This document shows positions 2,556 through 62,803 of a DNA stretch of 64,000 bases, piece after piece. The position numbers and the translations under genes were made by a program. Source of the DNA: a virus (taxonomy: Duplodnaviria; Caudoviricetes); the IMG/VR virus record IMGVR_UViG_3300033073_001153, positions 64,001 through 128,000 of that record. One strand, written 5' to 3'. Every line of letters begins with the position of its first letter. Position 1 is the stretch's first letter. The notes below the pieces were generated by a model that was given only the letters and a program-made list of their open reading frames with translations, was not told the DNA's origin and searched no databases.

Positions 2556-2837
2556 TTACGCCCAATCGGCGCAAGCAGCGGCAGAAGGGCTGCCTTTCTT
2601 AGCCTTGCTACAACGATGCCGTGCTTTGAAACTTTTCTTTCTTTTTGTATTACCAGATTTTCCAGTTACACGCACCCCTGCTTGTCCCCAGTGAATTCGT
2701 TTGATACTACCATCTGGTTGTCTAGCACATTTAGACCATTTCTTTCCTTTTCTAGTTGAATGTGCTTTCTTTGTAACCTTAGTACATTTACCTTCTTCTA
2801 ATAGTTCCATTCTTTCTAATAGTAGTTCGAAATTCAT
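2556..2837 (-). CDS. Small basic protein, DUF5754-like, with Glu-rich leader
   Basis: KKW..DGSIKRIHWGQAG..RKKSFKARH; leader MNFELLLERMELLEE; late box upstream. Confidence 0.55.
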   Translation of the reverse strand: MNFELLLERMELLEEGKCTKVTKKAHSTRKGKKWSKCARQPDGSIKRIHWGQAGVRVTGKSGNTKRKKSFKARHRCSKAKKGSPSAAACADWA

Positions 2838-2890
2838 ACTAATATTTAGTTATTATTTGAAAAAATAGTCATATAAAGATAAATAAAAAT

Positions 2891-3532
2891 ATGGCAACAT
2901 TCACGAATTTTGTATTTAATTCAGCAGCGGAAAATCCTCCTCAAGTTGGAGTTAGTCTTTCAGCATCTAATAATTCTGTAGTTTTTCTTCCTACTGTAAC
3001 GGTTTTTAATACTTTAACTGCTGTTCCAAACACAGTATTTACAACACCTCCACTTAGTGCTACACAAAATACTGCTATTACTGGAAGTAATGTTCTTTCT
3101 GGTTTTTATGCTGGTTGGGTTGCGAGCGGTATTCCATTAAATACTAAGTATACAGATACACAATTTGGAGCACTCACTGCAATTTATGCATCAACTCCAT
3201 TACTTAGCACACAAGTTGATGTTTTAACTTCTCGTATTACTTCTACTTCTATTTTCTCTTCTGGTAAATATAATGGGGTTTCAGTAAATGGAATTCTTTT
3301 TAATGAAATATCTGGTGCATCTACTGCTAGTGTTACTCTTTCTGTGACTGATCGTATTCAGTTCAAGGTTGCTCCTGAATATAATGGTGCTACTTTCGCA
3401 TTATATTTCCCAGATCGTTCTACTACTACATTCACTGTGGCTACTGCTACTGCGACACAAGTTGTAACTGGAGCTATTGGATTTGATAATCGTGGTCCAA
3501 ACGAACGTCGTCGTTTTGCTATAGAAATTTAA
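2891..3532 (+). CDS. Putative virion structural protein (Thr/Ser/Ala-rich)
   Basis: 213-aa ORF between a late box and a terminator. Confidence 0.55.
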   Translation: MATFTNFVFNSAAENPPQVGVSLSASNNSVVFLPTVTVFNTLTAVPNTVFTTPPLSATQNTAITGSNVLSGFYAGWVASGIPLNTKYTDTQFGALTAIYASTPLLSTQVDVLTSRITSTSIFSSGKYNGVSVNGILFNEISGASTASVTLSVTDRIQFKVAPEYNGATFALYFPDRSTTTFTVATATATQVVTGAIGFDNRGPNERRRFAIEI

Positions 3533-3561
3533 TTGTTGTTGGTTAATTCTTCATAGGCATT

Positions 3562-3591
3562 AAAACCCCACTAGAAATAGTGGGGTTTTTT
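3562..3591 (+). terminator. Intrinsic terminator
   Basis: AAAACCCCACTA-GAAA-TAGTGGGGTTTTTT. Confidence 0.85.
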
Positions 3592-3614
3592 GTATTTTGT
3601 TGTTAAATATTTTT

Positions 3615-4196
3615 ATGGGATTATTATTCGAACGTAGTAAAACTGGATTTTTAAATCCAGTTAATAGTACTGTTGATAAATTAATTTCAGCATCAAATGG
3701 ATTGATGTGTTTGAAATCCGCTATAATGGGAGGAATACCAAATCCAGCATCTATATTACAAGGTTTAGCAAGTGTTGCAGCAGGAATGATAGGAGCGATT
3801 ATTGGAGCAGTGACAACTGTTATAACGGAAAGAGTTGATCAAATAGTCAATTCTGTATTATCTCCTATTAGGAAAATAGAAGGAATAATAAAAGATTTAA
3901 CAGATACATTAGTAGGAGTACAGAACATATTAGACAAAGCTACTAATATGGATAACTATTTCAAGAACAAACAAGATTGTTCTGGATTTGCTGCACAGCT
4001 TATGAATTGTTTGGCACAAAATGCTATTAATAAAATAACAAACAAAGTAGCAATGAACGTAGATAAACACATAGGAAAGATAGCAAATAATGTGACTAAA
4101 GAATCTTTAAAAGTTAACGGAGTTATTGATAGTTACGTAAATCGTCATACAAAGTTTCTAGAAAAAGCTAATTTACAAACTAAATTATTAACATAG
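3615..4196 (+). CDS. Hypothetical helical late protein next to the baseplate hub genes
   Basis: ATG at 3615 lies 5 nt after TAAATA; ends 1 nt before the gp5-like gene. Confidence 0.6.
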   Translation: MGLLFERSKTGFLNPVNSTVDKLISASNGLMCLKSAIMGGIPNPASILQGLASVAAGMIGAIIGAVTTVITERVDQIVNSVLSPIRKIEGIIKDLTDTLVGVQNILDKATNMDNYFKNKQDCSGFAAQLMNCLAQNAINKITNKVAMNVDKHIGKIANNVTKESLKVNGVIDSYVNRHTKFLEKANLQTKLLT

Positions 4197-4197
4197 T

Positions 4198-15506: not shown

Positions 15507-15965
15507 TTAGTTATATAGTTCTTTTATAACTGAAGGAATTATTGGCTTGTATTTTTTTCTAAAAGTATCTTTATCTTTAAGATATTCTAAAAATAAATCA
15601 TCTTCTTTTATAGGTTCCCAATAATCTATAATTCCATTTTTATTATAGATTACATAAATTTTTATCAAACGATCTATTCCATAGACATCATATGTAATAT
15701 TGTCTTTTACTTTTTTGAAAAGATTCAAATCTTCCGAATTTATATTTACTTGTTTAATATATTCAAAAGTGTTCACCACATTTAAATATGATAACATATT
15801 ATAATGATAATCCTCATAATCTACATCTAATAAAGGATCGTCTAAATTTAGATCTAAATTATAATACATTATAGAATTTTTTAAATCTTCTAAATATGAA
15901 GATCTTATTATATCTCTAAAAGATATATTTTTAGATAGATTTTCTATAAATTCTAAATCTTTCAT
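15507..15965 (-). CDS. Hypothetical protein
   Basis: ORF in the minus-strand gene run; start uncertain. Confidence 0.55.
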   Translation of the reverse strand: MKDLEFIENLSKNISFRDIIRSSYLEDLKNSIMYYNLDLNLDDPLLDVDYEDYHYNMLSYLNVVNTFEYIKQVNINSEDLNLFKKVKDNITYDVYGIDRLIKIYVIYNKNGIIDYWEPIKEDDLFLEYLKDKDTFRKKYKPIIPSVIKELYN

Positions 15966-16503
15966 TTTTTGAATTATTTTTGATAACATTTTCAAAAATT
16001 TCATTTAAATTTTTGGATGAAATTTCTATTTCATTATTAGAAACTTCATCTAATAATGTTACTTCATTTCCAATAGAAAAAGCCTCTAATATTAATTTTT
16101 TCCACATTAGATAACCATATTCTGTCAATATTTTATCAGATTGAATAAAATTAAATTTAGGAAGATAAAAATTAAAAAATAAATATCTATACAATCCTTT
16201 TGTTTTAGAAGATGTCCAAATTAAATTTACTGTTATATAATTAGAAATTAATGTATAATCAAAATACATACATACTTCATTATCAAATAATAAAATTTCT
16301 ATTACATTATTTGGTTTTTGTATAACATATCTATCATAGATATTATTATTTAATCCTGTTATTTTTTCTACAGGAGAATAATTATTCTTAATAAAAATTG
16401 CATAGTTTTTATTAACATAATCCGAATTAAATCTTGTTAAATTTGTATTTTGAAAATTTACAAATTCTGGAGATTCAATATAAAATTGTTTAAAACTTTT
16501 CAT
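15931..16503 (-). CDS. Hypothetical protein with capsid-targeting-like leader
   Basis: Starts MKSFKQFYIES, similar to T4 internal protein leaders. Confidence 0.6.
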   Translation of the reverse strand: MKSFKQFYIESPEFVNFQNTNLTRFNSDYVNKNYAIFIKNNYSPVEKITGLNNNIYDRYVIQKPNNVIEILLFDNEVCMYFDYTLISNYITVNLIWTSSKTKGLYRYLFFNFYLPKFNFIQSDKILTEYGYLMWKKLILEAFSIGNEVTLLDEVSNNEIEISSKNLNEIFENVIKNNSKNERFRIYRKSI

Positions 16504-16881: not shown

Positions 16882-17517
16882 TTAACGAACCGTAATTGTA
16901 TCGTATAGCGGGTGTTGTTTTTTTGAAGATTTAAAAATAATCTTTCCAACTACGTTTCCTAAATTTAAATTACCTGAAGTCATTGGTCTGAGTGATGGTT
17001 CTTTATATGTTATACCACCAGATGGATTCTTTGATTTTTGTATATGCCTTGCTAATTTAACTGGATTTTGCATCTCTAATTTTAGACAATATAAATGTAA
17101 TGAACCACTTTCAATTGTAATTAAAAATGAATCATCTCTAAGAGATTCTGGTTTTTGTATCCAACTATAAAGTGAAGGACGTACTAAATTTGTCCTATAA
17201 TTTCTAGATCCTTTAATTTTGGTTTGTATATTATCTGGATATATTGTTTTATTATCAGAAGTTATAAATGATGCTCTTCCAGTGGAACAATCAATAATTC
17301 CATTTTCGTATATGGTATCTGTTAGTATCTCAGAAGTTTTTTTATCATAATATTCACCATGTGGGCGATATCCATGTTTTTCTGTATGTCTCTTAAACAT
17401 CGGACGAGGATCATATTTTTTAATTCTATCGGGAGTACTTTCATCACCATGAAATCTCCCCGGAACCACATCAATAATTGGTGTTTCTTTTAAAAAATAT
17501 TCCTCAAATTTTATCAT
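16882..17517 (-). CDS. Hypothetical late protein with leader MIKFEEYFLKE
   Basis: TAAATA-N5-ATG; leader motif. Confidence 0.65.
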   Translation of the reverse strand: MIKFEEYFLKETPIIDVVPGRFHGDESTPDRIKKYDPRPMFKRHTEKHGYRPHGEYYDKKTSEILTDTIYENGIIDCSTGRASFITSDNKTIYPDNIQTKIKGSRNYRTNLVRPSLYSWIQKPESLRDDSFLITIESGSLHLYCLKLEMQNPVKLARHIQKSKNPSGGITYKEPSLRPMTSGNLNLGNVVGKIIFKSSKKQHPLYDTITVR

Positions 17518-18894: not shown

Positions 18895-19122
18895 TTATTT
18901 TCTACGTTTTTTAGTTTTTTTATTTTTAATATAATCTTTCTTTTGTGGGAAAAATCCGCGACCCAATGGCTGATTAGCTCCTCCCATTCCCTGAAATGGC
19001 ATGGCTACATTTAATGGAGTGTTTGGTCCTCCTGCATATGCGGTTCCTGTTCCGTACTTACCAGAAGTAAAATCATAGTTATAATCTTCTAGTAATCTTT
19101 TTATTAGATCATCAAACTTCAT
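18895..19122 (-). CDS. Small late protein with MKFDDL..LLE leader
   Basis: TAAATA-N5-ATG; basic C-terminus. Confidence 0.7.
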   Translation of the reverse strand: MKFDDLIKRLLEDYNYDFTSGKYGTGTAYAGGPNTPLNVAMPFQGMGGANQPLGRGFFPQKKDYIKNKKTKKRRK

Positions 19123-19146: not shown

Positions 19147-19512
19147 ATGAATATTAGTAATTATCATTTAGGAGATGTTTATCAGCAAAAAGTATTGTTG
19201 CGTGAATTTAATAGTCCTGTGAATGATACTAGAAATTCATATGAAGTTACCGCTTCTATGAATGGTCCCGGTAAAGGACCAACTACAGGAGCTACAGATA
19301 CCAGTCCAAATAATTTTGATAGTAAAGTAATGTTTCCAAAAGATCAAGAAATTTCCAACGAAATGAAGAAAAATATGTTGATTAAATTTCTACAAGACGA
19401 AATAGACAACGGCAATTTCAATCAAGAAACAAAAAACAAATTCGAAGACTTACTCAGTCATTTGCTCAGTACAAACTCCGCAGAAGAAATTAAGAAAAAG
19501 AAGAAAAAATAA
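19147..19512 (+). CDS. Hypothetical late protein
   Basis: Divergent late box; poly-Lys tail. Confidence 0.65.
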   Translation: MNISNYHLGDVYQQKVLLREFNSPVNDTRNSYEVTASMNGPGKGPTTGATDTSPNNFDSKVMFPKDQEISNEMKKNMLIKFLQDEIDNGNFNQETKNKFEDLLSHLLSTNSAEEIKKKKKK

Positions 19513-19822: not shown

Positions 19823-20419
19823 TTATAAATTTACTTTTTTGTATACTACATCTTCTGAATTTGTATACTTTCCATAAGGAAGAGAAACCAAAATGTTTTC
19901 GTTATCTAGTGAAAATATAGGATCTCCATCTACTGTAACATGAGTTAAACTCACATTTTTTCCATTTGAAAATCCTAAAACCAAATCTGAAATAATATCA
20001 TCCATTAATTTTCTATTAACTGATAGACTTTTTAATTGTTCACTTTCATTTTTGTTTTCATCTATTTCAGAACGCAAAATGCTCATTCTAGAAATAATTT
20101 CATGTCTTTCTTCTTTTGACAATTCTTTTATATTTCTTTTTTCTGGTACGTCAATTTCCACCGAACTTTCTTCTTCACCGTAGGTTTCTGTATACTCTGG
20201 TTCTGAAAAATCATTAGGTTCTCTTTCAGATGATGGAATATATTCTTTTCTACTTTGCGGAATTGGAGACTTTTTGAAATGCCTACCTTTGTATCTACCA
20301 AATTTACTTCCTTCGAGATCACCAAAATCATTTTCAGGATTTATATTGATTTCTAATAATACCTTTTTTAGGTATATATTAGATAAATTTGATAAATCTT
20401 TCTTATTCATTTTTATCAA
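19823..20419 (-). CDS. Hypothetical protein
   Basis: 198-aa ORF in an operon-like run. Confidence 0.6.
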   Translation of the reverse strand: MIKMNKKDLSNLSNIYLKKVLLEININPENDFGDLEGSKFGRYKGRHFKKSPIPQSRKEYIPSSEREPNDFSEPEYTETYGEEESSVEIDVPEKRNIKELSKEERHEIISRMSILRSEIDENKNESEQLKSLSVNRKLMDDIISDLVLGFSNGKNVSLTHVTVDGDPIFSLDNENILVSLPYGKYTNSEDVVYKKVNL

Positions 20420-21519: not shown

Positions 21520-22404
21520 TTAATATCTTTCTCGGTTTCTATAGAACGCATCCTTAGCTATATCTTCTAAAGATTTTTTAGTTTTTCTTTGATATTCTGA
21601 TAACTTATGAAGTGCTCTTTGAGTCTTAGGACGCATACGCCTCATTTCATTATGTATATCTGTGTTTATTGTACTAAACAATTCTTGCCAATTCCAATTA
21701 CGTTCTAAACGATTTTTAGTTTTTTCTTCAATTTCTGCATTTGGATCAAGTAACCAGTTTATTGTTTCTACGAATCTATCTTCTTGATCTAGTGTGTATT
21801 CTCGTTCTCTCATACTTCTTAATTCGTATTGATGGGTATCTTCTAGCTTGTGCGCTTTTTCTCTACGAAGAACTTGGAAATCATTTATATTATTATAAAC
21901 ATAATATTCAACTCCAGATTGAGCAATCATATTAATATGATCAATCTTCATCTCGTGTCGTTTTTTATCTTCTTCATCTAAAGGCGGAACATATATATGA
22001 ATAGCTATTATATATTTTTTGGCATTTGTTATCTTATGATCTCTTGATAATATTCTCTCTTCGGTTTCGTCCATTGATGTAGTTCCCCAATAATTAACTG
22101 GAACTATTTTATAATTATCAGATACCTTAGATGCATCTAATTCTATTACACAGTGAAAAGTTTTTGAGTAATATTTTCCTTCAGAACCAGTGCCATAACG
22201 TCCACGAGCAATTGATGAAGTACTAAGAAAGAAGTTACGTTTATAATTTGGATTAGCACGAGCATCGGCTCCTTTACCATAAGTTAATTCAAATTTATTT
22301 TCAGATACTATTTTAGCAGCTTTAAATACATCAGTATAATGATACAATCTCCGAAGGGGAGAAGTGCCTTCTAGTAATTTCTGAACCAATTCGTCGAACT
22401 TCAT
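21520..22404 (-). CDS. Putative ADP-ribosyltransferase-fold protein with MKFDEL leader
   Basis: LYHYT..FLSTS..ETEERI pattern. Confidence 0.5.
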   Translation of the reverse strand: MKFDELVQKLLEGTSPLRRLYHYTDVFKAAKIVSENKFELTYGKGADARANPNYKRNFFLSTSSIARGRYGTGSEGKYYSKTFHCVIELDASKVSDNYKIVPVNYWGTTSMDETEERILSRDHKITNAKKYIIAIHIYVPPLDEEDKKRHEMKIDHINMIAQSGVEYYVYNNINDFQVLRREKAHKLEDTHQYELRSMREREYTLDQEDRFVETINWLLDPNAEIEEKTKNRLERNWNWQELFSTINTDIHNEMRRMRPKTQRALHKLSEYQRKTKKSLEDIAKDAFYRNRERY

Positions 22405-22412: not shown

Positions 22413-22664
22413 TTACTTTTTCTTCTTAGACCAAGTTATACGTTTGGAACTTTTCTTTTTTCTCTTGGATTCTGAACATTGTGATTTAGTCGGACGACAA
22501 GCTGGATACCCTCTGCGCTTTTCTCCTTTTTGTCTTCCACAAGGTTTTCCAGTTTTACAATCTATCCATCCGCCTTTTTTTCTCATAAACCATCCGTGCA
22601 AACCGTATTTTTTTTCTAGATCGAATTTTTCTAGTAATGTTTGTACTAAATCATCGAAGTTCAT
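22413..22664 (-). CDS. Small basic Cys-rich protein with leader (DUF5872-like)
   Basis: GL.GWF..WIDCKTGKPCGR..YPACRP; leader MNFDDLVQTLLE. Confidence 0.55.
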   Translation of the reverse strand: MNFDDLVQTLLEKFDLEKKYGLHGWFMRKKGGWIDCKTGKPCGRQKGEKRRGYPACRPTKSQCSESKRKKKSSKRITWSKKKK

Positions 22665-22843
22665 TATTTCTTACCTTTCTTCTTTGATTTGTTACCCCAA
22701 TTCTTGGCACCTTTTTTTCGGCAAGTTACGAGGGCACCGCTTGAATATGCTGATGGAAAAACACGATACCTTGCCTTCACTTTGTGATAACAAGCATCTT
22801 TTTTCTCTTCTAAAATTTTATTTACCAATTCGTCGAACTTCAT
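22664..22843 (-). CDS. Small basic protein with leader (DUF5872-like)
   Basis: Start at 22843 (MKFDELVNKILEE), DACYHKVK..PSAYSSGALV.CRK; late box upstream. Confidence 0.65.
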   Translation of the reverse strand: MKFDELVNKILEEKKDACYHKVKARYRVFPSAYSSGALVTCRKKGAKNWGNKSKKKGKK

Positions 22844-22877: not shown

Positions 22878-23876
22878 ATGAATGACAGAGAACTGATCTG
22901 GGAAAGATATAAGCTGATATCTGAAATACCAGCTAGTTTGGAATTCATGGGCGACGATCCAGAAATAACTAGTAAGCTAGAACCAAATTTTAAACCCGTA
23001 CAGAAAACTAAAAAACCAAGATTTAGCAATAATAGTCTTAATTCTAGAAATGTAGACGTAAATGCATGGACTAGTGAAAAAGCTAGAGAACTAATGAAAT
23101 CCACCGTACAAACTGGTACGGCCAAAGGTTTAGACAAAAGACGACAAGCACAAGGAAAAGCACCTTTAATCTGGAAATTGGTAGATGCTAATCTAGAACA
23201 AGAAATAGAAACTTCTAGATATATTATAAGTAAATCAGATCTTACGGATTTAGTTAATAGTAATCCATCAATAAAACAAAAATTGTCCACTCCAAACGGA
23301 ATTACAGTAATTATGACTCCTTCTGGACAAGCAGAACGATCTGGTATTATGGCATTTTCTAGCTGGATAAGATCACATAAATGCGGTCATGCTATTCTAG
23401 AATATAGAAAAAACGCAGATATAGATAATAATATCAAAAAAGTTTTAAATGATTATTATAAACTTTTTAAAGAATCTTTGTCGCTAATAGGAAATTATAA
23501 ACTTTCTAATCGTTTAAATGATTATCCAATTTTAAAAATTATGGCAGAGAAAGGAACAGCCGAATACGGATATCCAGATCCGCAAAAATATTACAGAGAT
23601 CCGGAAATTTTCTATATGGACTTTTTTACCTTTGGGTCGGCAAGAAATAGAGAATTAATAATAACCGACATAAAAGAAGAATTGGTGGCACAGTTAATGC
23701 AAACCGGTAAAATAACTGTGAATAAAATGATAGATAACATAATCTTAAAAAAGATGAATGATTGGTTTGGTAATATAGATATAGAAAACCTTTTAAATAT
23801 CGAAGAATATATAGCAAATCAAATAGACCAAGCAATAGAAAATTGTATAGGCGAAATACTATATGATGTGGTTTAA
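22878..23876 (+). CDS. MNDRELIWE-leader protein of unknown function
   Basis: Leader motif and late box. Confidence 0.75.
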   Translation: MNDRELIWERYKLISEIPASLEFMGDDPEITSKLEPNFKPVQKTKKPRFSNNSLNSRNVDVNAWTSEKARELMKSTVQTGTAKGLDKRRQAQGKAPLIWKLVDANLEQEIETSRYIISKSDLTDLVNSNPSIKQKLSTPNGITVIMTPSGQAERSGIMAFSSWIRSHKCGHAILEYRKNADIDNNIKKVLNDYYKLFKESLSLIGNYKLSNRLNDYPILKIMAEKGTAEYGYPDPQKYYRDPEIFYMDFFTFGSARNRELIITDIKEELVAQLMQTGKITVNKMIDNIILKKMNDWFGNIDIENLLNIEEYIANQIDQAIENCIGEILYDVV

Positions 23877-25038: not shown

Positions 25039-25647
25039 ATGAACGACAGAGAAATGATCTGGGAAAGATATATAAACGAAGCATATAATAGAGATTGTAT
25101 AATTTGTATTGATATTCAACCAGCATATGAATCTTATGCCAAAAAGATAATGAATAACTTTGTAAATTTTTTAAATTCATACAAAGGTGAAATATATTAT
25201 TTTTATAATGGATCTGATGTTGGTATAGACGATAACTCATATTCAATATCTGAATGGCTAATGGAATATGGAGTAGAAGAAGAAGTTTTAAATAAAATAG
25301 TTTTTAAAGAAAAGTACTATGCATTTTTTAGAAATTTCATGGATCAAGGAATGGATAGACACGAAATAATTAAAATTATTCGTTATATGGTAATGAACCG
25401 AATAAACGATAGTAGAGATATCGAAGAAGAACAATGGAAAAATATTCTAGGTGAAGAATATAATAATTATGAATATATCATAAATTCTGACAATATACAC
25501 ATACCAGATATTTCTATAGGACATTTAAAAACATTAAATGGATGTTATTTGGCTGGCGGAGGAAGAGACGAATGTTTATCAGAATTCAGATTTTTATTAG
25601 AAGCATTTAATATAAAATACAAACTGATAAAATCATTAATATATTAA
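25039..25647 (+). CDS. MNDREMIWE-leader cysteine hydrolase (isochorismatase/nicotinamidase fold)
   Basis: IICIDIQ (Asp), KEKYY (Lys), LAGGGRDECL (Cys) triad. Confidence 0.6.
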   Translation: MNDREMIWERYINEAYNRDCIICIDIQPAYESYAKKIMNNFVNFLNSYKGEIYYFYNGSDVGIDDNSYSISEWLMEYGVEEEVLNKIVFKEKYYAFFRNFMDQGMDRHEIIKIIRYMVMNRINDSRDIEEEQWKNILGEEYNNYEYIINSDNIHIPDISIGHLKTLNGCYLAGGGRDECLSEFRFLLEAFNIKYKLIKSLIY

Positions 25648-26240: not shown

Positions 26241-26428
26241 AAGGTTGTGTTGGGTAAGTGTGAATCTATTATCGGCGCGAGTTTATATTCTGACTGGAAT
26301 GTTTCCCGTAAGCATGATTGCCTAATGGCGGGACGCTAAGGGGGTTTGTGATGCCCTATGTGGGTAGGGGTGCGGTGGTGATATTGCCGGAGGGGTCGGA
26401 GCCTTTTAAGGGGCCTTTACGCGCAAAG

Positions 26429-26458: not shown

Positions 26459-26472
26459 ACTACTTTCCGGTT

Positions 26473-34878: not shown

Positions 34879-35376
34879 CTAAAATTGTGAGAGTACTCTA
34901 TTAACAAATTTTTCTTTTTGTTTTAAATCATTCCATTCTGGATAAGGCTCGCTGAGTCTGGGATGTTCGTCCATGAAATATTCTTCTAAATCTGGATGAT
35001 AAACATCACTTGGCTGTAATCTTGCTAATACTCGTATAGTGTCTTTTTGCAAGAGAGGTTCGCCGTCTGTGCCGTAACCTATTTCTTTGCCTTTTAATAG
35101 ATAAATGGGTCTTTCTGCCACGTCGATTAAAGTAACAACTTGATCATGATCCGCATCTTCTACGAACCATCTTTGATAATCCGGCCACCACTTTGCCCAG
35201 AAACACGAAATTCCCTTTTCGTACAAAGGCTCGTTTCCTTTTCCCACAATAGAATGACCGATTTTAGAAAACTTTCCCTCTGGGACATTGCCGAATCTTA
35301 TGTAGAACTGATCTTGTTCTGTGTTTTCTTTTAAAGTTTTTGTATAACTCTCCCAGATCATTTGTTCATCGTTCAT
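34879..35376 (-). CDS. MNDEQMIWE-leader protein
   Basis: YIRFG..EKGISC..GTDGEPLL; late box upstream. Confidence 0.7.
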   Translation of the reverse strand: MNDEQMIWESYTKTLKENTEQDQFYIRFGNVPEGKFSKIGHSIVGKGNEPLYEKGISCFWAKWWPDYQRWFVEDADHDQVVTLIDVAERPIYLLKGKEIGYGTDGEPLLQKDTIRVLARLQPSDVYHPDLEEYFMDEHPRLSEPYPEWNDLKQKEKFVNRVLSQF

Positions 35377-37758: not shown

Positions 37759-38196
37759 TTAAAGTTCGTAGTTTATTCTTCTGCTTGTGGGAGTCCAGCC
37801 TTTTCGATCTGTGAGTGTTAATTCAACAGGTTCTATTTTTTTTACGTTTAGTAACGGATAGCCGTACTTTACTTTGTCTTTCTTTATGTAGAATTTACTG
37901 TTTTTATCAACTAAATGTTTATCGTAATCTTTATCGAATTCTTCTTCGTTGTGGTAGATTACGGGTTCGCCAATGATTGCGGAACCCACTAGATATGATT
38001 TAGCTGGCTTACTTTTAGATGTACCAGTTTTAATGATACCCACACGTTTACCGATATATTGGTTTAGAGTGGGTTTGAATTTGGTTTCTATTGTTTTCTC
38101 GCCGCGAATGATCTGTCCGGTGAAGTCTTGGAGTTTATCATTAATATGTATACCCATATTTTGATAACTCTCCCAGATCAGTTCATTGTCATTCAT
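37759..38196 (-). CDS. MNDNELIWE-leader ASCH/PUA-domain protein
   Basis: IIRGEKTIETK..GKRVGII..LVGSAIIG..YGYPL.NV. Confidence 0.7.
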   Translation of the reverse strand: MNDNELIWESYQNMGIHINDKLQDFTGQIIRGEKTIETKFKPTLNQYIGKRVGIIKTGTSKSKPAKSYLVGSAIIGEPVIYHNEEEFDKDYDKHLVDKNSKFYIKKDKVKYGYPLLNVKKIEPVELTLTDRKGWTPTSRRINYEL

Positions 38197-38236
38197 GATT
38201 ATTATTTAACTATCTTTTTCTCACTACATGGAGCAG

Positions 38237-38710
38237 TTAGATATCCGCATTCATTATATTTTCTACACCATTTTTTGTGTGTTCATCACTAGTATCCTTC
38301 CCAAGACAATACTTATCAATTAAGGATGTTGCATGATCTTCAGTTAAACCTAGCTTTTGTAATCTATCTAATAAATCATAATAAAGATTGTTGGTTAGGT
38401 TTTCATGCGTCTCCCAAACTCTGTCTTCAAAATTATCCACTGTTATGTCTTCTGTGTCTCTTGATCTTTGTAGATATTCATCTCGAAAGATACGAGCATC
38501 ATTCTCTTCTTGTGGTGTAATTGGTTGTCCTTTTTCCGAGTAATCTCTTCTATCAACATTAAATGTTTTTTCATAAAATGAAAAGTAATTCCAAACCATT
38601 CTTTTATAACCTCTAAAACCTTCCAATGTATCAATCAGTTCTTGTTTAATGGGACTGATTTGAACTTTTTGTTTTTTGTATGCCTCCCAGATCAGTTGTT
38701 CATCATTCAT
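38237..38710 (-). CDS. MNDEQLIWE-leader protein of unknown function
   Basis: Leader motif and TAAATA-N6-ATG. Confidence 0.7.
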   Translation of the reverse strand: MNDEQLIWEAYKKQKVQISPIKQELIDTLEGFRGYKRMVWNYFSFYEKTFNVDRRDYSEKGQPITPQEENDARIFRDEYLQRSRDTEDITVDNFEDRVWETHENLTNNLYYDLLDRLQKLGLTEDHATSLIDKYCLGKDTSDEHTKNGVENIMNADI

Positions 38711-43873: not shown

Positions 43874-44422
43874 TTAAAATTCTTCTCCGCCACGGAAGGC
43901 AAAGCGGTTCCGGCTGCGAAAAATTCCAGCGGCATCACCTTTTCGGAAAATTCCGATATCGGAAAGTGCTGGTCGCATGAGTGCTTTTTCAAAGGCTAAA
44001 AGCATAGCATCTAAAGTTTCTGGTTTAATTAAATTATCATCAGAAGAAATATTAGAAATGCGTATTCTAGACATATTTCTAGCATCTAAATTAGCAGACG
44101 GAGAAACACCATCGTAATAACCACAAATGCAATCATGTACTATATCTCCGTCTACATCTAAACCAATTCTGAACCCAGCCGCTGCATGATATAACAAATC
44201 TCTATTAAAGAAATAAACATTTTTAGTAGGAATATGAACAATGAATCCAACATCATTATCTTCGCCTACCATTGTGCTACGTTCTTTTGGGCCAGCATTT
44301 CTAATAATACTACCAGAACCTCTATTATTATTAAAATCAATGACTCGATCAGGAGAAACAGATTCTATCAAATATTCGGCATATGAATCATAAGATAAAT
44401 CTGATATATTAATTTCTATCAT
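43874..44422 (-). CDS. Hypothetical protein
   Basis: 182-aa ORF, TAAATA upstream. Confidence 0.6.
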   Translation of the reverse strand: MIEINISDLSYDSYAEYLIESVSPDRVIDFNNNRGSGSIIRNAGPKERSTMVGEDNDVGFIVHIPTKNVYFFNRDLLYHAAAGFRIGLDVDGDIVHDCICGYYDGVSPSANLDARNMSRIRISNISSDDNLIKPETLDAMLLAFEKALMRPALSDIGIFRKGDAAGIFRSRNRFAFRGGEEF

Positions 44423-47045: not shown

Positions 47046-47300
47046 ATGGAAAAATCATTCGAAGAATTTATGCGGGAGTTTGAGGAAAAAGGAAAAGAAT
47101 ATAGAAGAGAGATGGAGATTAAAAGGAAAAAAGAACTTGCTCGAAAGAAATTAGAACAGGGAACTCCAGAATTACCAGAGAGAGAAGGAAGAATTTACGA
47201 TTCTAGAAATGACGAAGACCGACAAGAAGCATTAAACAAACTTAAAAAAGTTAAAAACACTATAAGTGATATTCGTCAATTAAAACAGTACGAAAGGTAA
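47046..47300 (+). CDS. Charged late protein with MEKSFEEFMRE leader
   Basis: TAAATA-N5-ATG. Confidence 0.6.
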   Translation: MEKSFEEFMREFEEKGKEYRREMEIKRKKELARKKLEQGTPELPEREGRIYDSRNDEDRQEALNKLKKVKNTISDIRQLKQYER

Positions 47301-48502: not shown

Positions 48503-48955
48503 TCAAATGTTTTCTTCGTTGTCAACGTTTTCCCAACGCGATCTCATACGTTCCAACGCATCATCTGGAACACCATGAACATTCTTATAATTTCCGGTTG
48601 CTTTCTTAATGATAATCTCCGCTCCATAATTTTTACCCAACTGAATATAAGGATCAATCTCCCACTTTTGGGTAAACGTATTCGAAACAATTACCGATTT
48701 TCCAAACATCAAATCAATCTCAGTTTGCTTTTTGCACCATTCATGTGCATCTTTGAGTTTCTTTGGATCAAAATGATATTCACCATTATTATTATAAAAA
48801 TACATATCTGCCTCATAATGAGAAAGAGATGGATCTTCTTTCATCAACTGTTTAGCATAAGTTGTTTTCCCAGATCCAGAAATTCCACGAATGAGAATCA
48901 ATTTTTGTGAATGATTTTCTTCTAACAATTCGCCAACCAAATCATCAAATTTCAT
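48503..48955 (-). CDS. P-loop kinase (AAA_33/polynucleotide-kinase-like) with MKFDDL leader
   Basis: RGISGSGKTT, EADMYF, VIVSNTF, NVHGVP. Confidence 0.8.
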   Translation of the reverse strand: MKFDDLVGELLEENHSQKLILIRGISGSGKTTYAKQLMKEDPSLSHYEADMYFYNNNGEYHFDPKKLKDAHEWCKKQTEIDLMFGKSVIVSNTFTQKWEIDPYIQLGKNYGAEIIIKKATGNYKNVHGVPDDALERMRSRWENVDNEENI

Positions 48956-56896: not shown

Positions 56897-57164
56897 TTTT
56901 AATTTTAGATAACATATAATTGCGTTTATTCACAATATAGTATCTGTAATTTTCTGTAATTTCTTTTCCGTTTCTAATAGAAAAGTGATTCATTTTATTT
57001 TCTCCAATTCCAGCAAATGCTGATGGTTTAATATCTTTCTTGTAAGGACACAAGCCATGGTGAACACGCATGTGTCTTATATAATCATCTATATTATCAA
57101 TTTTAGTTTTTGATAAGATTTCTTTTATCTTATCGAAATGGAGAATTACTTGCCGTGTGCTCAT
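56886..57164 (-). CDS. KIKYGI-family protein
   Basis: Ends IVNKRNYMLSKIKNGI; start ATG 57164. Confidence 0.65.
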   Translation of the reverse strand: MSTRQVILHFDKIKEILSKTKIDNIDDYIRHMRVHHGLCPYKKDIKPSAFAGIGENKMNHFSIRNGKEITENYRYYIVNKRNYMLSKIKNGI

Positions 57165-57165
57165 T

Positions 57166-57771
57166 TCACCACATTGTTTGATAACCAGTTTCGTTATCTT
57201 GGATATACCAAGCAGCATCTTTTCCAGTAGTTGATACTTCTCCAGTACATTCTAGATCTACTTCATTATATCGAACTCCTGTAATAATTTGAATACATTC
57301 GTCAACATCTTCAAATAGAATTGAGAGCTTTGATTGATCGAATTCTTCTCCTTCTTTTAGATTTAAAATATATTCAGCTTGAAATCCTTTGGAATATTCT
57401 TGTCCTACTATGATGTAACGAGAATCGAAATCTTTGAATATAATATCTTGTTCACATTCAGTATTCCATTTATCACCAACTTTATAATCCATTTCTGTTG
57501 AATAAATTTCGTTTTCATTTTCATCAACAATTCGCATGGTGGTGTTTCTGTTGAAATAAGGTCCAAAATTATGATAGAACTTATCGTTTTCGTATTTTGT
57601 TTCTTGTGTTAAACCTTCGTGGATATCTTCGGAGAGTTCATCTTCCATGTTACCACACATGTGATCCGTAACATCAATTCCATTTTCATCAAAATGCTTA
57701 AACATTTTTTCTGTACATTCTCCAACAATAATCTCAGCACCCCAACCGTGGAATTCAATTTTATATTTCAT
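57166..57771 (-). CDS. Acidic hypothetical protein
   Basis: 201-aa ORF. Confidence 0.7.
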   Translation of the reverse strand: MKYKIEFHGWGAEIIVGECTEKMFKHFDENGIDVTDHMCGNMEDELSEDIHEGLTQETKYENDKFYHNFGPYFNRNTTMRIVDENENEIYSTEMDYKVGDKWNTECEQDIIFKDFDSRYIIVGQEYSKGFQAEYILNLKEGEEFDQSKLSILFEDVDECIQIITGVRYNEVDLECTGEVSTTGKDAAWYIQDNETGYQTMW

Positions 57772-57772
57772 T

Positions 57773-58135
57773 TTAATTTTTAATCTTTTCTAACATTTCT
57801 GCTTTCTTTTTCAAGAAAGTTTTTCGGATTGCCTGACAAATACTATCTGTTAAGTAAAAACGATAAGTGTTATTTACATTACCAGAAATAAAATTATCAA
57901 TAATATCTCTTAATTCTATTTCTAGAGTATCTTTGGTTTCTTCCACAGCAGTTTCTAATCCAATAAAATCAGGATCAGGAGAAGCCGCTATCCATCTAAT
58001 ACCTCTACTGTATTTGTTATTGTAAACAAAATAATTACCATATCCAATATGGTCTCTGTCGTAGATTTTACCTATTGGTTTATACTTGCCATCTACTCTC
58101 ATGTAAATGGTTTCGTCTGGATATTTCCTAGGCAT
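57773..58135 (-). CDS. Hypothetical protein
   Basis: Operon-like run. Confidence 0.6.
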   Translation of the reverse strand: MPRKYPDETIYMRVDGKYKPIGKIYDRDHIGYGNYFVYNNKYSRGIRWIAASPDPDFIGLETAVEETKDTLEIELRDIIDNFISGNVNNTYRFYLTDSICQAIRKTFLKKKAEMLEKIKN

Positions 58136-58137
58136 GA

Positions 58138-58452
58138 TTATTTTTTCAAAATCTCAACCAATAATATGTTTTGAATATCCCTACCAAGATTTTCGACATC
58201 ATTTAAAATGAATAGTTTAGAGGATTCTGTATAACTATTGTCTTTACAAATAATTAAATTAAGTACAAACCCCCCATTTTCTGATTTGAATAATTCCATT
58301 TTAAATGTAGGAAATATTTTAGAATTGAATGGAGAAATCGTGCTAGAACCATTTGTGGATATAGTGGTAATAGTTCCACTAGAATTCAAGGAATTTAATG
58401 CACTTTGTAATAGAGGAGATGTGTTTGACGATGCGTTAATATTGAAGGACAT
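58138..58452 (-). CDS. Hypothetical protein
   Basis: SENGGFVL..LGRDIQNI. Confidence 0.6.
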   Translation of the reverse strand: MSFNINASSNTSPLLQSALNSLNSSGTITTISTNGSSTISPFNSKIFPTFKMELFKSENGGFVLNLIICKDNSYTESSKLFILNDVENLGRDIQNILLVEILKK

Positions 58453-58454
58453 AA

Positions 58455-58898
58455 TTACTTGTACTGTATAAATCCACGTTTGTCAACTACATAATTATTC
58501 GGATATTTATTTTTTAGATCCTCATCTAAGATTGCCCACGAAGGAGTATTTTTAGGATCGAAATAAACAAATATATAAGCCCAATGGTTTACTATCTCAT
58601 AACTCTTTAAGTACTTTTTAAAAGTATCCCGCATTTGTTGGGAATGTAATTTATCTACAATAGTTGGAGTTAAGTAAGTAGTTTTAGAAAAACATAATCT
58701 TTTTGTGAAAGAAAGTGTGTCTTCGTTATCAGTCAAAGGTGGATCACACTTTTCTACGGTGCAATATACTCTTCCTTTATTGAATCCGGCTAATAACCAA
58801 AGCCTCGTACCTAAACCTGCACGAAGTGGAACTTTACCAGTTTTAAGAGCATGTAAAAATTGTTTCTTTTTATAAATTTCTTCAAATTCAGATTCCAT
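58455..58898 (-). CDS. Hypothetical protein
   Basis: Start MESEF at 58898 overlaps the upstream KYGI stop. Confidence 0.6.
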   Translation of the reverse strand: MESEFEEIYKKKQFLHALKTGKVPLRAGLGTRLWLLAGFNKGRVYCTVEKCDPPLTDNEDTLSFTKRLCFSKTTYLTPTIVDKLHSQQMRDTFKKYLKSYEIVNHWAYIFVYFDPKNTPSWAILDEDLKNKYPNNYVVDKRGFIQYK

Positions 58899-60450: not shown

Positions 60451-60469
60451 ATTATTATTTAACTTTTTT

Positions 60470-61348
60470 CTAGTAAAAACACATGAGCTTCAACACTGCA
60501 AGATCTTTTTGTTTTGCTTCGATCTCAATATCTACATCTACTGCACAATGTGGAATGTTATTGATATAATCGGCATGAGCACGATCTAAACTGTGTGCTT
60601 TACCTTCACTATGATGAAACAAAGGAACCGTATCTTTCCAAGTACCCACACAAACTTCGTGTGCAGTTTCTTCTAGTTCACCGTCGTTGTTAATCAAACG
60701 ATGATGATAATCTAGTGTAATCGGAATGTTTGGGAAATACTTGTATAGATTCTGATACTTCCAGAATGACTTGTCTTCTGTTTCAAATACCAAACGATTC
60801 ATAACACTACTAGATAGTTTGGGTAGATTACGATCTACTTGTCTGATAGCAATTTCTGGATTGTTACCATTACTAACATGAATATTAATAGGACAAAAGT
60901 GACTACTTGGAATATTTAGCATATCAAACATCTTGGCATGATATTCTAGATTACGAACACCATTAGTATTCACGTCATCTTTGGGAGAAGAAATAATACA
61001 GAACTGATCTGGGTGTGTACTGAGCCGACCACCGTTAGCCAAATACTTTTGAACACTCATTCTTGCTGGAATCCAAAAGACTTCTTTAGAACAAAATAGA
61101 TTCCAGTATTGTTCGAAGTCTGGATGATCTGCCAGAGGAAACATATTCGACGAAATACGATAATGACGAATATTTTTAAGAGTCAAATAACCTAGAACTT
61201 TACAAAGCTCAGAGAGATTATGACGATAAACATCAAAGATTTTGTCTTGTTTGTTAGACAAGTCTTTGGTACGATTTAACTGAAGTGTCTTGAAATCAGA
61301 TTTCTGACCCAACGTGATACAACATACACCCAAACGGTTCTTAAACAT
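60470..61348 (-). CDS. uvsE: UV damage endonuclease UvsE
   Basis: YRISSNMFP, RLSTHPDQF, INIH, ETED, LDYHH, HHSEG..RAHADY, IEAKQKDLA. Confidence 0.9.
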   Translation of the reverse strand: MFKNRLGVCCITLGQKSDFKTLQLNRTKDLSNKQDKIFDVYRHNLSELCKVLGYLTLKNIRHYRISSNMFPLADHPDFEQYWNLFCSKEVFWIPARMSVQKYLANGGRLSTHPDQFCIISSPKDDVNTNGVRNLEYHAKMFDMLNIPSSHFCPINIHVSNGNNPEIAIRQVDRNLPKLSSSVMNRLVFETEDKSFWKYQNLYKYFPNIPITLDYHHRLINNDGELEETAHEVCVGTWKDTVPLFHHSEGKAHSLDRAHADYINNIPHCAVDVDIEIEAKQKDLAVLKLMCFY

Positions 61349-61354
61349 GGGTGT

Positions 61355-61382
61355 AGTCTAGAGAAGAAAAACAAGATGTCAA
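61355..61382 (-). promoter_or_regulatory. Sigma70-type promoter of uvsE
   Basis: TTGACA-N16-TAGACT, ATG 6 nt downstream. Confidence 0.65.
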
Positions 61383-62615
61383 CTATTCTTCTACAAAAAA
61401 ATCGGTAGATTCTCCCAAACGAAACCTATCACTGGGAGCTAAAATTACATTTAGCACGCTTTTTATTTTTTCGTTTACGGCTCGGTTTCCATATGCAACA
61501 TACAATCCTAATGCTTCGCAAAAAGCTTCTTCTGCGTTTTTATTAGCATAACCAGTAATAGGAGTATTTGGTACTACAACTTTTCCTTTTATTTGATTGT
61601 TTTTATATGCGTCTACTAAAGATTGTAAATCATAAATGCCATAATGACTAGTAGCATAATTATGAAATAATGCTTCGGCTTGTAGATATAAAATAGGATT
61701 TTCTGTTTTCATTCGTGTTTCGAAATCACGAGATTTTTCATTTTCTCCCATCATATTCACTATTTCTTCTACATCTATTTCAATTTTATCACTAATAATA
61801 AATTCGTACCAAAAGTTTCTACTTTCTTCTGATAAAGATTTGTATATATGATGACCCATTTCATGAGCCAATACTCTTATAAAAGCTTCTTCTTTATTTT
61901 CTTTTGAAGCCCATGCTGTTAATATAATTTTATTATATTCATATAATCCAGCAGAATTAGAATTATCATAAGTATCAAATTCCATATGAATTTCTACCGG
62001 AAGTCCATATCTTAACATTAAAGGAGCTACTTTTCTTGCTCTTTCTACATAAGAATTGATATAATACTTTAATCTTGGTAATCTAGATTTATTTTTATCA
62101 TTCAAACCTATAAAAATAAAAGGAATTCCGTCTACTTTAAAAGTGTGTTTTTCTAAATTTAATTTTAAATCTAAATTTGGATTATTTTCTAAAAATCTTT
62201 TAAATTCAGTCCAAGTTAAATTAGCTTTTTTATTAGCTAATCTTTTTAGATTAATAAGTTTTTTTAAATTATGTTCGTCTCGTCTTTTACTGTATTCTTC
62301 TAATTCATATTTTATATCTCTTAAATGACTTAGTAATTCCCAAAGTGGTTGTCTTACATATGCAGTATGAATTTTTTTATTTTCTCCCCATTTATACATC
62401 AATGTACTAATATCATCATAATAATTGATTACTTTTAAAAAAGGATCTTTTAATTTAGTAGCATTTTCAGGAGTTAATTTAGTTCCTATATTTTTAATTA
62501 TAATATCGTAATCATTTTTTAACTTATCAATAAATTCAATATTTATATCAGTATCTGATTCTTCTAAAAGAATTTTAGATACGTAAGATTCCCAAATCAA
62601 ATCAACATCATTCAT
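61383..62615 (-). CDS. MNDVDLIWE-leader zinc metallopeptidase
   Basis: AGLY..LAHEMGHHIY..YANKNAEEAFCEA. Confidence 0.7.
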   Translation of the reverse strand: MNDVDLIWESYVSKILLEESDTDINIEFIDKLKNDYDIIIKNIGTKLTPENATKLKDPFLKVINYYDDISTLMYKWGENKKIHTAYVRQPLWELLSHLRDIKYELEEYSKRRDEHNLKKLINLKRLANKKANLTWTEFKRFLENNPNLDLKLNLEKHTFKVDGIPFIFIGLNDKNKSRLPRLKYYINSYVERARKVAPLMLRYGLPVEIHMEFDTYDNSNSAGLYEYNKIILTAWASKENKEEAFIRVLAHEMGHHIYKSLSEESRNFWYEFIISDKIEIDVEEIVNMMGENEKSRDFETRMKTENPILYLQAEALFHNYATSHYGIYDLQSLVDAYKNNQIKGKVVVPNTPITGYANKNAEEAFCEALGLYVAYGNRAVNEKIKSVLNVILAPSDRFRLGESTDFFVEE

Positions 62616-62617
62616 AG

Positions 62618-62803
62618 TTATTTCGCTCCAGATTCTTTTAGATGTTTTTGTACAGCTTTCAATAATGCTTCCACTTTCTTATCATCATCTACTTTCTTCG
62701 TGATGATTCTCTTAAAAGTTTTTTTGAGCTTCTGATCCATTGCTTCGTCACCTTTGTGTTCGGTTAAAACAGATTCAATTAAGTTTAAGAATTTAGAAGC
62801 CAT
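62618..62803 (-). CDS. Small late protein with leader
   Basis: MASKFLNLIESVLTE; TAAATA-N5-ATG. Confidence 0.6.
   Translation of the reverse strand: MASKFLNLIESVLTEHKGDEAMDQKLKKTFKRIITKKVDDDKKVEALLKAVQKHLKESGAK

Follow-up and report, generated by a model that had tools for sequence, protein, structure and literature searches.

The window analysed here is a stretch of 64,000 nucleotides, bases 64001-128000 of the 242.6-kb genome (G000) of an uncultured freshwater T4-like phage of the T4 superfamily. A head module ends at its left edge; it comprises a Peptidase_S77 protease of the gp21 type, a scaffold protein and gp23. The protease lies just upstream of the window (G000 60578-61036; 101 bits, above cut-off), and its alignment to T4 gp21 matches both the catalytic His (LNH) and the catalytic Ser (SSR.LG). 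In the major capsid protein, CLRE-ANVAGG aligns with the cleavage site FLTE-AEIGG of T4 gp23, the LxE-A being kept. The scaffold homologue contains 15 (L/I)xE motifs in 295 amino acids; T4 gp22 has 16 in 269.

Seventeen genes of the window begin with a short leader of one of three classes, A, B or C. They are given below with the capsid gene at the left edge; gene starts are those of a simple ORF caller.

10..465, + strand: gp23-type major capsid protein, C-terminal end (Pfam Gp23 match, G000 63161-64384, 291 bits)
2556..2837, - strand: 93-aa basic Cys-rich protein, class B leader MNFELLLERMELLE; mature pI 10.8; TAAATA box; G001 orthologue
15931..16503, - strand: 190-aa protein, class C leader MKSFKQFYIE, T4-CTS-like; weak PHROG match only
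16882..17517, - strand: 211-aa protein, class C leader MIKFEEYFLKE; TAAATA box
18895..19122, - strand: 75-aa basic protein, class B leader MKFDDLIKRLLE; pI 10.1; G001 orthologue
21520..22404, - strand: predicted ART-fold enzyme, class B leader MKFDELVQKLLE; conserved RRLYH, STS and ExE; AF2 and fold search
22413..22664, - strand: 83-aa basic protein, class B leader MNFDDLVQTLLE; pI 10.5; L126 homologue with a different leader
22664..22843, - strand: 59-aa basic protein, class B leader MKFDELVNKILE; pI 10.3; 20 nt from ATG in common with the start at 22404
22878..23876, + strand: 332-aa protein, class A leader; second site ISE at residues 14-16; orthologues in G001, L021 and L065
23889..25034, + strand: 381-aa protein with putative C-terminal ART-like domain, class A leader; YHAG, GFHLGT, E356; AF2 and fold search
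25039..25647, + strand: 202-aa protein, candidate cysteine hydrolase, class A leader; INE at residues 12-14; L108 orthologue
34879..35376, - strand: 165-aa protein, class A leader; own late box within the early-gene region; weak DUF6098 match
37759..38196, - strand: 145-aa protein, class A leader; ASCH as a lead only; own late box within the early region
38237..38710, - strand: 157-aa acidic protein, class A leader; own late box within the early region
47046..47300, + strand: 84-aa basic protein, class C-like leader MEKSFEEFMRE; L048 homologue begins MDKTFAEFMAE
48503..48955, - strand: AAA_33 P-loop kinase, class B leader; Pfam 45.3 bits; domain from residue 19
61383..62615, - strand: 410-aa HExxH protein, class A leader; LLE at residues 16-18; no late box of its own, follows gene 62618-62803
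62618..62803, - strand: 61-aa basic protein, class B/C leader MASKFLNLIE...LTE; late box; orthologues in G001 and L078

Leader sequences, late boxes and candidate cleavage sites

Genome-wide, the three interchangeable N-terminal tags head about 30 mutually unrelated late proteins. Class A reads MNDxx[LMI]IWExY and has 11 copies in the whole genome, every one at residue 1; its seven starts in the window follow MNDxx[LM]IWExY. Class B has six starts in the window, which read M[KN]F[DE]xL..[LI]LE-like, and the remaining four are MKSFKQFYIE, MIKFEEYFLKE, MEKSFEEFMRE and MASKFLNLIE. All 17 starts had been named in a preliminary description of the window and translate as described there.

The leader pattern is far beyond chance. 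In a six-frame translation of the whole genome, [LMIV]I[WF]E.Y occurs 13 times, and 11 of these occurrences lie at residue 6 of a called protein. The class B/C core pattern is found at 13 N-termini of the genome, while its internal frequency predicts 0.57. When all N-termini were clustered without bias, the A, B and C groups were recovered and 145 similar pairs emerged, compared with 38 for residues 21-36.

Some leaders are also alike as DNA. The starts at 22878 and 23889 have 27 identical nt from the ATG in common, those at 22404 and 22843 have 20, and TGATCTGGGA is found six times (3+3), exactly as first reported. Codons at the conserved leader residues are mixed (AAT/AAC 17:5, GAT/GAC 10:12, three Ile codons, three Leu codons), and since synonymous codons vary freely, selection on the class A leader acts on the peptide. 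The leader is conserved as a peptide and not, as first proposed, at the DNA level. A portable cassette of late promoter plus leader had also been suggested. Portability of the leader is borne out by natural swaps at the same Glu (see below), but the promoter-containing DNA cassette is only partly right because the block of 27 identical nt runs from the ATG onwards and leaves the promoter out.

Late promoters were called by the TAAATA motif. Such a box, at a distance of 2-12 nt from the ATG, precedes 10 of the 11 class A genes and 9 of the 13 class B/C genes; among other genes the figure is 73 of 319 (23%). In most late genes it ends 5-6 nt upstream of the ATG. A clear TAAATA box is missing from some class B kinase genes. 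As had been noticed earlier, most leader genes have a box of their own, also within the early region (34879-35376, 37759-38196, 38237-38710), and the leader-bearing genes are predicted to be late.

The leaders of all 17 window genes, and of about 30 genes genome-wide, end in (L/I/F/M)xE within residues 7-18. (L/I)xE is a short motif; in this genome, 16% of 12-residue stretches contain one. A second [LI]xE lies at residues 13-24 in 43 of 90 class A proteins, compared with 6-16% in later stretches, and the lone class A copy that has IWD for IWE retains LTE at residues 16-18. The invariant Tyr of class A sits two residues beyond the proposed cut. Either the element recognised in class A extends past the first Glu, or the true cut is at the second (L/I)xE.

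In T4, the internal proteins IPII and IPIII begin MKTYQEFIAE and IPI begins MKTFKEF; positions 4, 7 and 8-10 of the capsid-targeting sequence (CTS) have been shown to direct targeting and processing (PMC9026906). Class C (MKSFKQFYIE, MVSFKEYFYE, MISFSRYFYE) has aromatic residues in positions 4 and 7, followed by h-x-E in positions 8-10, and as a sequence it closely resembles these tested CTSs. Class B resembles the propeptides of T4 gp24 and Alt (MAKINELLRE, MELITELFDE). Class A shows no sequence likeness to the tested CTSs beyond IxE.

Cargo folds and exchange of leaders

Beyond the leader the cargoes are unrelated, as the preliminary description had stated: BLASTP with leader-stripped proteins returned orthologues and one paralogue pair only, with no matches between different cargoes. 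There is no Phage_Mu_F or portal match in the 17 window proteins and 47 class A representatives, and the cargoes are small and stand alone.

Two ART-like folds had been suspected; AF2 models and fold search bear out the first and make the second a candidate. The cargo of 21520-22404 (pLDDT 77.7) matches Tpt1 with a VIA Z of 9.3 (rmsd 3.0, 112 aligned) and DarT with 8.3-7.8; the best 50 rows of the fold search are all ART-fold proteins. Residues R18, R19, H22, S61, S63, E113 and E115 are kept across 20 homologues. The model confirms this cargo as an ART-fold protein, predicted to be an enzyme. The model of the C-terminal domain of 23889-25034 is modest (pLDDT 69), with a VIA Z of 8.2 to a cyanophage A4 pre-ejectosome chain and of 5-6.4 to ParT, tankyrase and diphtheria toxin; H166, H187 and E356 are invariant. 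The P-loop kinase label of 48503-48955 is upheld by Pfam AAA_33 (45.3 bits, cut-off 27) and by the Walker A motif GISGSGKT. Of the proposed HExxH peptidase, the motif is present (61383-62615) and the Pfam matches are weak.

The leader lies outside the cargo folds. Both AF2-modelled leaders (21520-22404, 23889-25034) have low pLDDT. A class A protein from a metagenome is a genuine Isochorismatase whose domain starts from residue 20, and a weak Tox-ART-HYD1 match also begins at residue 20. The leader was looked for as part of the fold of cellular homologues; these lack it, as do some phage orthologues.

In other phages, orthologous cargoes carry a class A, B or C leader or none, joined at the same Glu. 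Orthologues of the ART cargo (21520-22404) have a B, A or C leader, and those of the kinase cargo (48503-48955) an A leader, a B leader or no leader. The APVGxI cargo is found with any of the three classes, the AQKYTS and YHGGGW cargoes with A or C, and P0028, an orthologue of 23889-25034, has a class C-like leader. Within the window, 43292-43582 is a leaderless early gene with a sigma-28-type promoter; in a homologue of it, both a class A leader and a late box are present. A class C-like motif also occurs internally, at a fusion junction near the C-terminus of PcfJ-LRR proteins.

In metagenomes, 76 unique class A proteins have late boxes. They fall into 38 clusters, so that this leader stands on no fewer than 38 cargo families without relation to one another. 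The largest class A cargo cluster, with 9 members, is that of 37759-38196. A search with the class A DNA pattern across 596 Gb of prokaryote genomes gave 16 occurrences, about as many as expected at random. These data show that the leaders are real, restricted to the N-terminus and selected as peptides, that they can be separated from the fold of the cargo, and that natural exchange between cargoes takes place.

Similar leaders and Peptidase_S77 are found together in G001, in Alishewanella phage Slicko01, which has eight tandem MKIxxLYESxLxE genes, and in Vibrio phage K566. The leaders occur together with Peptidase_S77 in all complete genomes that were checked.

Probable capsid targeting and its alternatives

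We consider it likely that all three classes of leader are T4-like propeptides for capsid targeting. This reading is supported in silico, and from it we infer packaging into the virion, cleavage and injection. The leader would form an N-terminal helix of 9-20 residues. Late transcription would have the cargo made while proheads assemble, and the leader, by binding the scaffolding core, would bring it into the prohead. Cutting behind the Glu of the (L/I/F)xE at the leader's end, a gp21-type protease would free the mature cargo inside the head, from which it would exit with the DNA at the next infection. Points against this reading are the unlikeness of class A to tested CTSs, the position of its Tyr beyond the proposed cut, the shortness of (L/I)xE, the class B kinase genes lacking a clear box, and the number of packaged species, since thirty would far exceed what is known for T4.

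It is unlikely, on the other hand, that the leaders mainly serve to keep toxic enzymes inactive or to time their activation, as propeptides cut by the head protease or as tags for the neck, tail or baseplate, with no head loading for injection. All leaders end in (L/I/F)xE, many with a second site, and the ART-like enzymes, the kinase and the HExxH proteins could harm the producing cell; the class C-like motif at the PcfJ-LRR junction would fit a cleavable linker. However, the T4 gp21 protease is active only inside the prohead (PMC9026906), so that cleavage itself implies encapsidation. Moreover, the same leaders occur on small basic proteins without enzymatic motifs, and class C matches the T4 targeting residues, not the cleavage residues alone. 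Binding to a common non-virion partner in the producing cell (a phage chaperone, a host target, a membrane site or a degradation system) is likewise improbable. It would leave unexplained the constant terminal (L/I/F)xE with its enriched second site, the swaps of A, B and T4-like C at the same Glu, the company of Peptidase_S77 in all complete genomes that were checked and the late timing here of enzymes of a kind that T4 delivers pre-made (Alt). In favour of a docking tag, any tag shared by unrelated cargoes would look like this, an amphipathic helix that is short, conserved and swappable, and class A is unlike any tested CTS.

A signal in the nucleic acid is very improbable. Because TAAATA ends 5-6 nt from the ATG, late mRNAs may be leaderless, starting almost at the ATG, and the conserved 5' coding sequence could then serve them as a translation-initiation or stability element; that some adjacent leaders are identical in DNA agrees with this. 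Against it, residues are invariant while synonymous sites vary freely, three different peptide classes replace one another, and the 73 other genes with the same promoter geometry carry no such leader. Finally, the tandem arrangement of 22878, 23889 and 25039, and of 22404, 22664 and 22843, might suggest diverged paralogues of one family whose N-terminus is the last trace of common ancestry. This has next to no likelihood: single-family ancestry is refuted by the fold and domain data (AAA_33, Isochorismatase, GNAT, ParB_N, PcfJ, ART), the stripped proteins do not cross-match, and orthologues of one cargo carry differing leaders or none.

Known systems and the T4 precedent

Read as capsid targeting, the system has its closest precedent in the T4 internal proteins and their CTS. 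There too, a short N-terminal propeptide ending in (L/I)xE heads otherwise unrelated late proteins, and the cargo includes small basic proteins and an ADP-ribosyltransferase, here a predicted one. The gp21 protease of T4 cuts the propeptide within the prohead; here a corresponding cut would be expected. Class C is nearly identical in pattern to its T4 counterparts, whereas class A (MNDxxLIWExY) has none. T4 has about four such cargoes, the present genome about 30 putative ones, and unlike in T4, three leader classes coexist and are exchanged on the same cargo. The internal-protein loci of T-even phages are described as hypervariable, with >30 variants (Repoila 1994, Comeau 2007, as cited in PMC2839356). 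In that account, as in the reading proposed here, diverse cargo behind a conserved targeting leader is shuffled among related phages, with defence and counter-defence as its presumed functions. The T-even variants occupy two loci and are distributed across many phages, whereas the genes described here are scattered in one genome, early region included, and the leader itself is swapped between classes.

Other phages fill their heads in different ways. Phages phiKZ, 201phi2-1 and SPN3US have many head-internal ejection or inner-body proteins. A protease related to gp21 removes their propeptides after Glu, and these contain redundant cleavage sites, as the leaders here may do, but the motif is S/A-x-E and the propeptides are long, not short shared swappable leaders (PMC9026906, PMC5694885). 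MuF- or portal-fused effectors and polyvalent virion proteins bring head-packaged ARTs and other enzymes in with the DNA (PMC9503650). Their packaging comes from being fused to a structural domain within a single large protein, in contrast to the many small proteins with a 10-20-residue tag each found here. In the Dar system of phage P1, anti-restriction cargo with capsid-targeting regions enters heads during morphogenesis and is injected, loading being hierarchical through DarA and Hdf; unlike here, the head lineage and protease are different, cargoes are few and there is no shared short leader (PMC9024508, PMC12810830).

By analogy, the leaders would define a new and very large variant of the T4 internal-protein/CTS system. 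The small, very basic cargo proteins would be like the T4 internal proteins, and the enzyme cargoes (the two ART-like proteins, the P-loop kinase and the HExxH proteins) would act at the very start of infection. The head of this phage probably carries unusually many enzymes and small basic proteins, to be delivered to the next host.

Leader classes and cargo proteins

All 17 protein starts singled out in the preliminary description translate as described there, and three leader groups are recovered by unbiased clustering of all N-termini. The class A consensus is M-N-D-x-x-(L/M/I)-I-W-E-x-Y, that of class B is M-(K/N/R)-F-(D/E)-x-L-(V/I)-x-x-(L/I)-L-E and that of class C is M-x-(S/K)-F-x-x-(Y/F)-(F/Y)-x-E. 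In the whole virus record (242,607 bp, rated complete), of which bases 64001-128000 form the window, and with genes called by a simple ORF caller, about 30 genes carry a leader: 12 of class A, about 12 of class B and about 6 of class C. Six-frame translation of this genome yields 13 occurrences of the class A motif, 11 of them at residue 6 of a called protein, while the class B/C core pattern matches 13 N-termini against 0.57 expected. A class A variant, MTTDSVEIFESY, forms the start of the gene adjoining the head protease.

When the leaders are stripped, BLASTP matches are limited to orthologues and one paralogue pair. Pfam and PHROGs are almost blank on the 17 window proteins. The cargoes with some assignment are as follows (window positions).

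21520-22404: 294-aa cargo with an ART fold (AF2 pLDDT 77.7)
23889-25034: 381-aa protein with a probable ART-like C-terminal domain (AF2 pLDDT 69)
25039-25647: 202-aa putative cysteine hydrolase, as called in the preliminary description
37759-38196: ASCH, as an Atlas lead only
48503-48955: AAA_33 P-loop kinase, domain from residue 19
61383-62615: HExxH protein with weak peptidase matches
Five small class B cargoes: 47-85 mature residues, pI 10.1-10.8

Of the two ART-like folds proposed earlier, that of the 294-aa cargo is supported by its AF2 model and fold search, and that of the 381-aa protein is a probable one from a modest model; the matches are of moderate strength. For the 294-aa cargo, Tpt1 is the best match (Z 9.3, rmsd 3.0, 112 aligned), DarT scores Z 8.3-7.8, and the top 50 matches are all ART-fold proteins; its conserved residues are RRLYH, S-T-S and E-x-E. 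The C-terminal domain of the 381-aa protein matches the ART-fold proteins ParT, tankyrase and diphtheria toxin at Z 5-6.4, and the best fold match of this protein is a pre-ejectosome chain of cyanophage A4 (Z 8.2, 153 aligned). Both models show the leader as a low-confidence helix standing apart from the core. The P-loop kinase call is likewise upheld by AAA_33, and the proposed peptidase does contain HExxH, although its peptidase matches are weak. PDB sequence searches returned no match for the ASCH-like cluster or for the 202-aa protein.

Other N-terminal modules occur in this genome. Three late genes of the window, at 19147-19512 (+), 19823-20410 (-) and 43874-44422 (-), possibly carry longer leader types (MNISNYHLGDVYQQKVLLRE, MNKKDLSNLSNIYLKKVLLE and ...YAEYLIE/S). 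Beyond the window, large tail-fibre-like proteins (genome positions 171303-175435 and 196722-203012) have two further common N-terminal modules, reading MANTFQIKRR..G.AGAP.SL and MIDQRIGKIKVRRGTD.QR, which are probably structural attachment domains. In the PcfJ-like class A proteins with LRR, an internal class C-like ESFKxFFxE lies near the C-terminus. In one copy a basic peptide comes next, and in G001, the sister genome, this peptide exists as a class B gene of its own, suggesting gene fusion across a cleavable motif. The loci concerned are genome positions 56951-58465 and 134351-136054 and, in G001, 81633-83222 and 2910-3050.

Leader exchange and late promoters

Three different leaders occur among homologues of the 294-aa ART cargo, and the junction is always at the same Glu. 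Most have class B (MKFDxLIQRLxE joined to GTSPLRR); P0013 has class A (MNDESLIWESYKKTILNE joined to STSPLRR), on a contig with three consecutive class A genes, one of them an AAA_33 kinase; P0014 and P0019 have class C (MISFKIFFE joined to GTSS). The kinase cargo is found with an A leader, a B leader or none, the G001 orthologue (80% identical) being devoid of 11 leader residues. The APVGxI cargo (257-263 aa) occurs with A, B or C, two further cargoes with A or C, another with B or C, and the 381-aa ART-like protein with an A or C-like leader. The early gene 43292-43582 is leaderless and has a promoter of the sigma-28 type; its homologue combines a class A leader with a late box. That leaders are grafted onto different genes, as first proposed, is thus borne out by natural swaps at the same Glu. 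These swaps amount to an evolutionary experiment, one that shows the tag to be modular.

The identities noted earlier are all present: 27 nt from the ATG at 22878 and 23889, 20 nt at 22404 and 22843, and six copies of TGATCTGGGA. A general conservation at the DNA level is nevertheless not borne out. Synonymous codons are mixed in 22 class A copies (AAT/AAC 17:5, GAT/GAC 10:12, GAA/GAG 14:7, TAT/TAC 15:7, with three Ile and three Leu codons), and it is the peptide, not the DNA, that is conserved. The 27-nt block of the neighbours 22878 and 23889 runs from the ATG to codon 9 and their promoters differ, so the recently copied piece is the leader rather than a promoter-plus-leader unit. Hence the portable cassette first envisaged holds in part, for the leader as the copied and swapped piece.

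With late promoters assigned from the motif, TAAATA located 2-12 nt (mostly 5-6 nt) before the ATG precedes 10 of the 11 class A genes, 9 of the 13 in class B/C and 73 of the 319 others; the corresponding figures in G001 are 11/12, 7/7 and 76/316. Most leader genes therefore have their own late box, as claimed, even inside the early region, where each of three class A genes (34879-38710) has one amid a block of genes with other, sigma-28-like promoters. Gene 61383-62615 has none and lies directly after the boxed gene 62618-62803.

Across the late genes of the genome there is no Shine-Dalgarno sequence between TAAATA and an ATG mostly 5-6 nt away, so late mRNAs may be nearly leaderless. Many early-type genes in window 26000-56000 are preceded by CTAAAG-N15-(G)CCGATA (minus strand, for instance upstream of 32706, 37643, 42156, 43582, 47694, 48062, 50363 and 55447), which looks like a sigma-28 (FliA)-type promoter; the one upstream of the leaderless gene 43292-43582 is common to both genomes. 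The stretch 26000-33000, with a GC content of 0.44-0.49 versus about 0.30 elsewhere, may be a foreign or differently regulated block; it includes a 522-aa ORF (26473-28041) and a motif, CCGGTTCACACTCAGAAA, repeated upstream of several small genes.

The head module and the capsid-targeting reading

A T4-type head module is located just upstream of the window and reaches into it.

Genome 60512-61183: Peptidase_S77 (gp21)
Just upstream of the window: Lys-rich 213-aa protein
Just upstream of the window: 295-aa scaffold-like protein
Genome 62867-64465: Gp23, C-terminal end at window 10-465

The major capsid protein shares only about 31% identity with its cyanophage and T4 counterparts, and megablast of 25 kb against cultured phages gave no match; judged from its sequence, the phage is a deep branch of the T4 superfamily without a close cultured relative. 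A tRNA scan of the window found none. The 527-aa ORF after gp23 (565-2148, +) is 33-39% identical to jumbo-phage proteins (RaK2, K64-1, Lak phages) annotated as homing endonucleases.

In T4, cleavage follows the Glu of L/I-x-E (PMC9026906). The catalytic His and Ser of T4 gp21 align to the phage protease, the T4 gp23 maturation site FLTE/AEIGG aligns with CLRE/ANVAGG, and the scaffold homologue has 15 (L/I)xE motifs; the T4 rule thus plausibly applies here. In T4 capsid-targeting sequences, residues 4 and 7 serve targeting and residues 8 and 10 processing (PMC9026906); in the T4 record, IPII and IPIII begin MKTYQEFIAE and IPI begins MKTFKEF. Class C is similar: its positions 4 and 7 are aromatic and positions 8-10 read h-x-E. 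Class B is akin to the propeptides of T4 gp24 (MAKINELLRE) and Alt (MELITELFDE), and its five small cargoes are small and basic like T4 internal proteins. Class A is without T4 counterpart except for I-W-E. A second [LI]xE occurs at residues 13-24 in 43 of 90 unique class A proteins, versus 6-16% of later 12-residue stretches, and the single copy with IWD retains LTE at residues 16-18. An invariant Tyr follows the first Glu, which suggests either recognition that extends beyond this Glu or a true cut at the second site.

The leaders are probably T4-type capsid-targeting propeptides, and their cargoes head-packaged proteins. The leader would bind the core and be cleaved, and the cargo would be packaged in the head and ejected. 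That the leaders serve cleavage only, or address another virion site, is unlikely, and a tag for a non-virion partner is equally so. Much less probable still is an mRNA signal in the conserved 5' coding sequence: the synonymous variation contradicts it, as do 73 genes with the same promoter geometry but no leader peptide, and it was rejected on these grounds. Common ancestry of the proteins, which has next to nothing in its favour given their different folds and the leader swaps, was also discarded.

Distribution and significance

In G001 (236 kb), class A leaders occur on 13 genes, with cargo that differs in part. A strict class B DNA pattern found no match there; reading its whole sequence reveals both B and C leaders. 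Leaders were sought by DNA patterns rather than with leader profiles against protein databases because about 12 conserved residues cannot reach significance among billions of sequences. A scan of metagenomes, whose contigs are fragments, added 56 class A ORFs with late boxes; pooled with those of the two genomes, they amount to 76 unique class A proteins in 38 BLASTP-unrelated cargo clusters. Among the Pfam matches of these cargoes are Isochorismatase (from residue 20), GNAT, ParB_N and PcfJ; an FGase match is probably a chance bacterial one. In 596 Gb of prokaryote genomes the class A DNA pattern occurs 16 times, about the random expectation, and 15 of these are internal to other ORFs or without Leu/Met at position 6 and a late box. 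The only genuine-looking gene, MNDETLIWEAYESS with a late box, is on L143, a 4.4-kb contig (GC 0.33) in a Saprospiraceae MAG bin; the contig is probably phage DNA binned in error, and may hint weakly at the host.

Two cultured phages have comparable systems. In Alishewanella phage vB_AspM_Slicko01 (L128; OQ508956, 85.9-91.6 kb) eight tandem genes, all annotated hypothetical, start with MKIxxLYESxLxE, and several of their products are ART-like with (V/I)(F/Y)H(V/S/A)T motifs. In Vibrio phage K566 it is an ART-like protein that bears MKKFNEFANELAE. Peptidase_S77 is encoded by both phages. No description of the MNDxxLIWExY motif or of the Slicko01 array was found in the literature.

Diverse internal proteins sharing only the capsid-targeting sequence are established, with over 30 variants among the T-even phages (PMC3012670, PMC9026906, PMC2839356), and head-packaged ARTs are already known (PMC9503650). 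What is new is class A as an unrelated kind of leader; three coexisting, naturally interchangeable classes; the scale of about 30 genes in one genome; and cargo toggling between an early-expressed and a leader-tagged late form. There is an even chance that a freshwater and marine clade of the T4 superfamily uses an interchangeable A/B/C code of capsid-targeting leaders to pre-load the head with about 30 different proteins per genome, or about 9% of genes, with cargoes toggling between early leaderless and late leader-bearing forms. In that case the leader would resemble a secretion signal, and injected effectors, new anti-defence enzymes among them, could be identified directly in metagenomes.

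Proteins injected with phage DNA act ahead of any phage gene expression. This makes them prime candidates for roles in counter-defence and host take-over (cf. T4 IPI*, Alt); lacking a common fold, they are hard to find. A modular tag would be useful for engineering protein delivery with non-coli phages. If these are true capsid-targeting sequences, they provide a handle that already marks no fewer than 38 unrelated families of cargo in uncultured phages, mostly unannotated, and a T4-type head could hold a payload much larger and richer in enzymes than that of T4.
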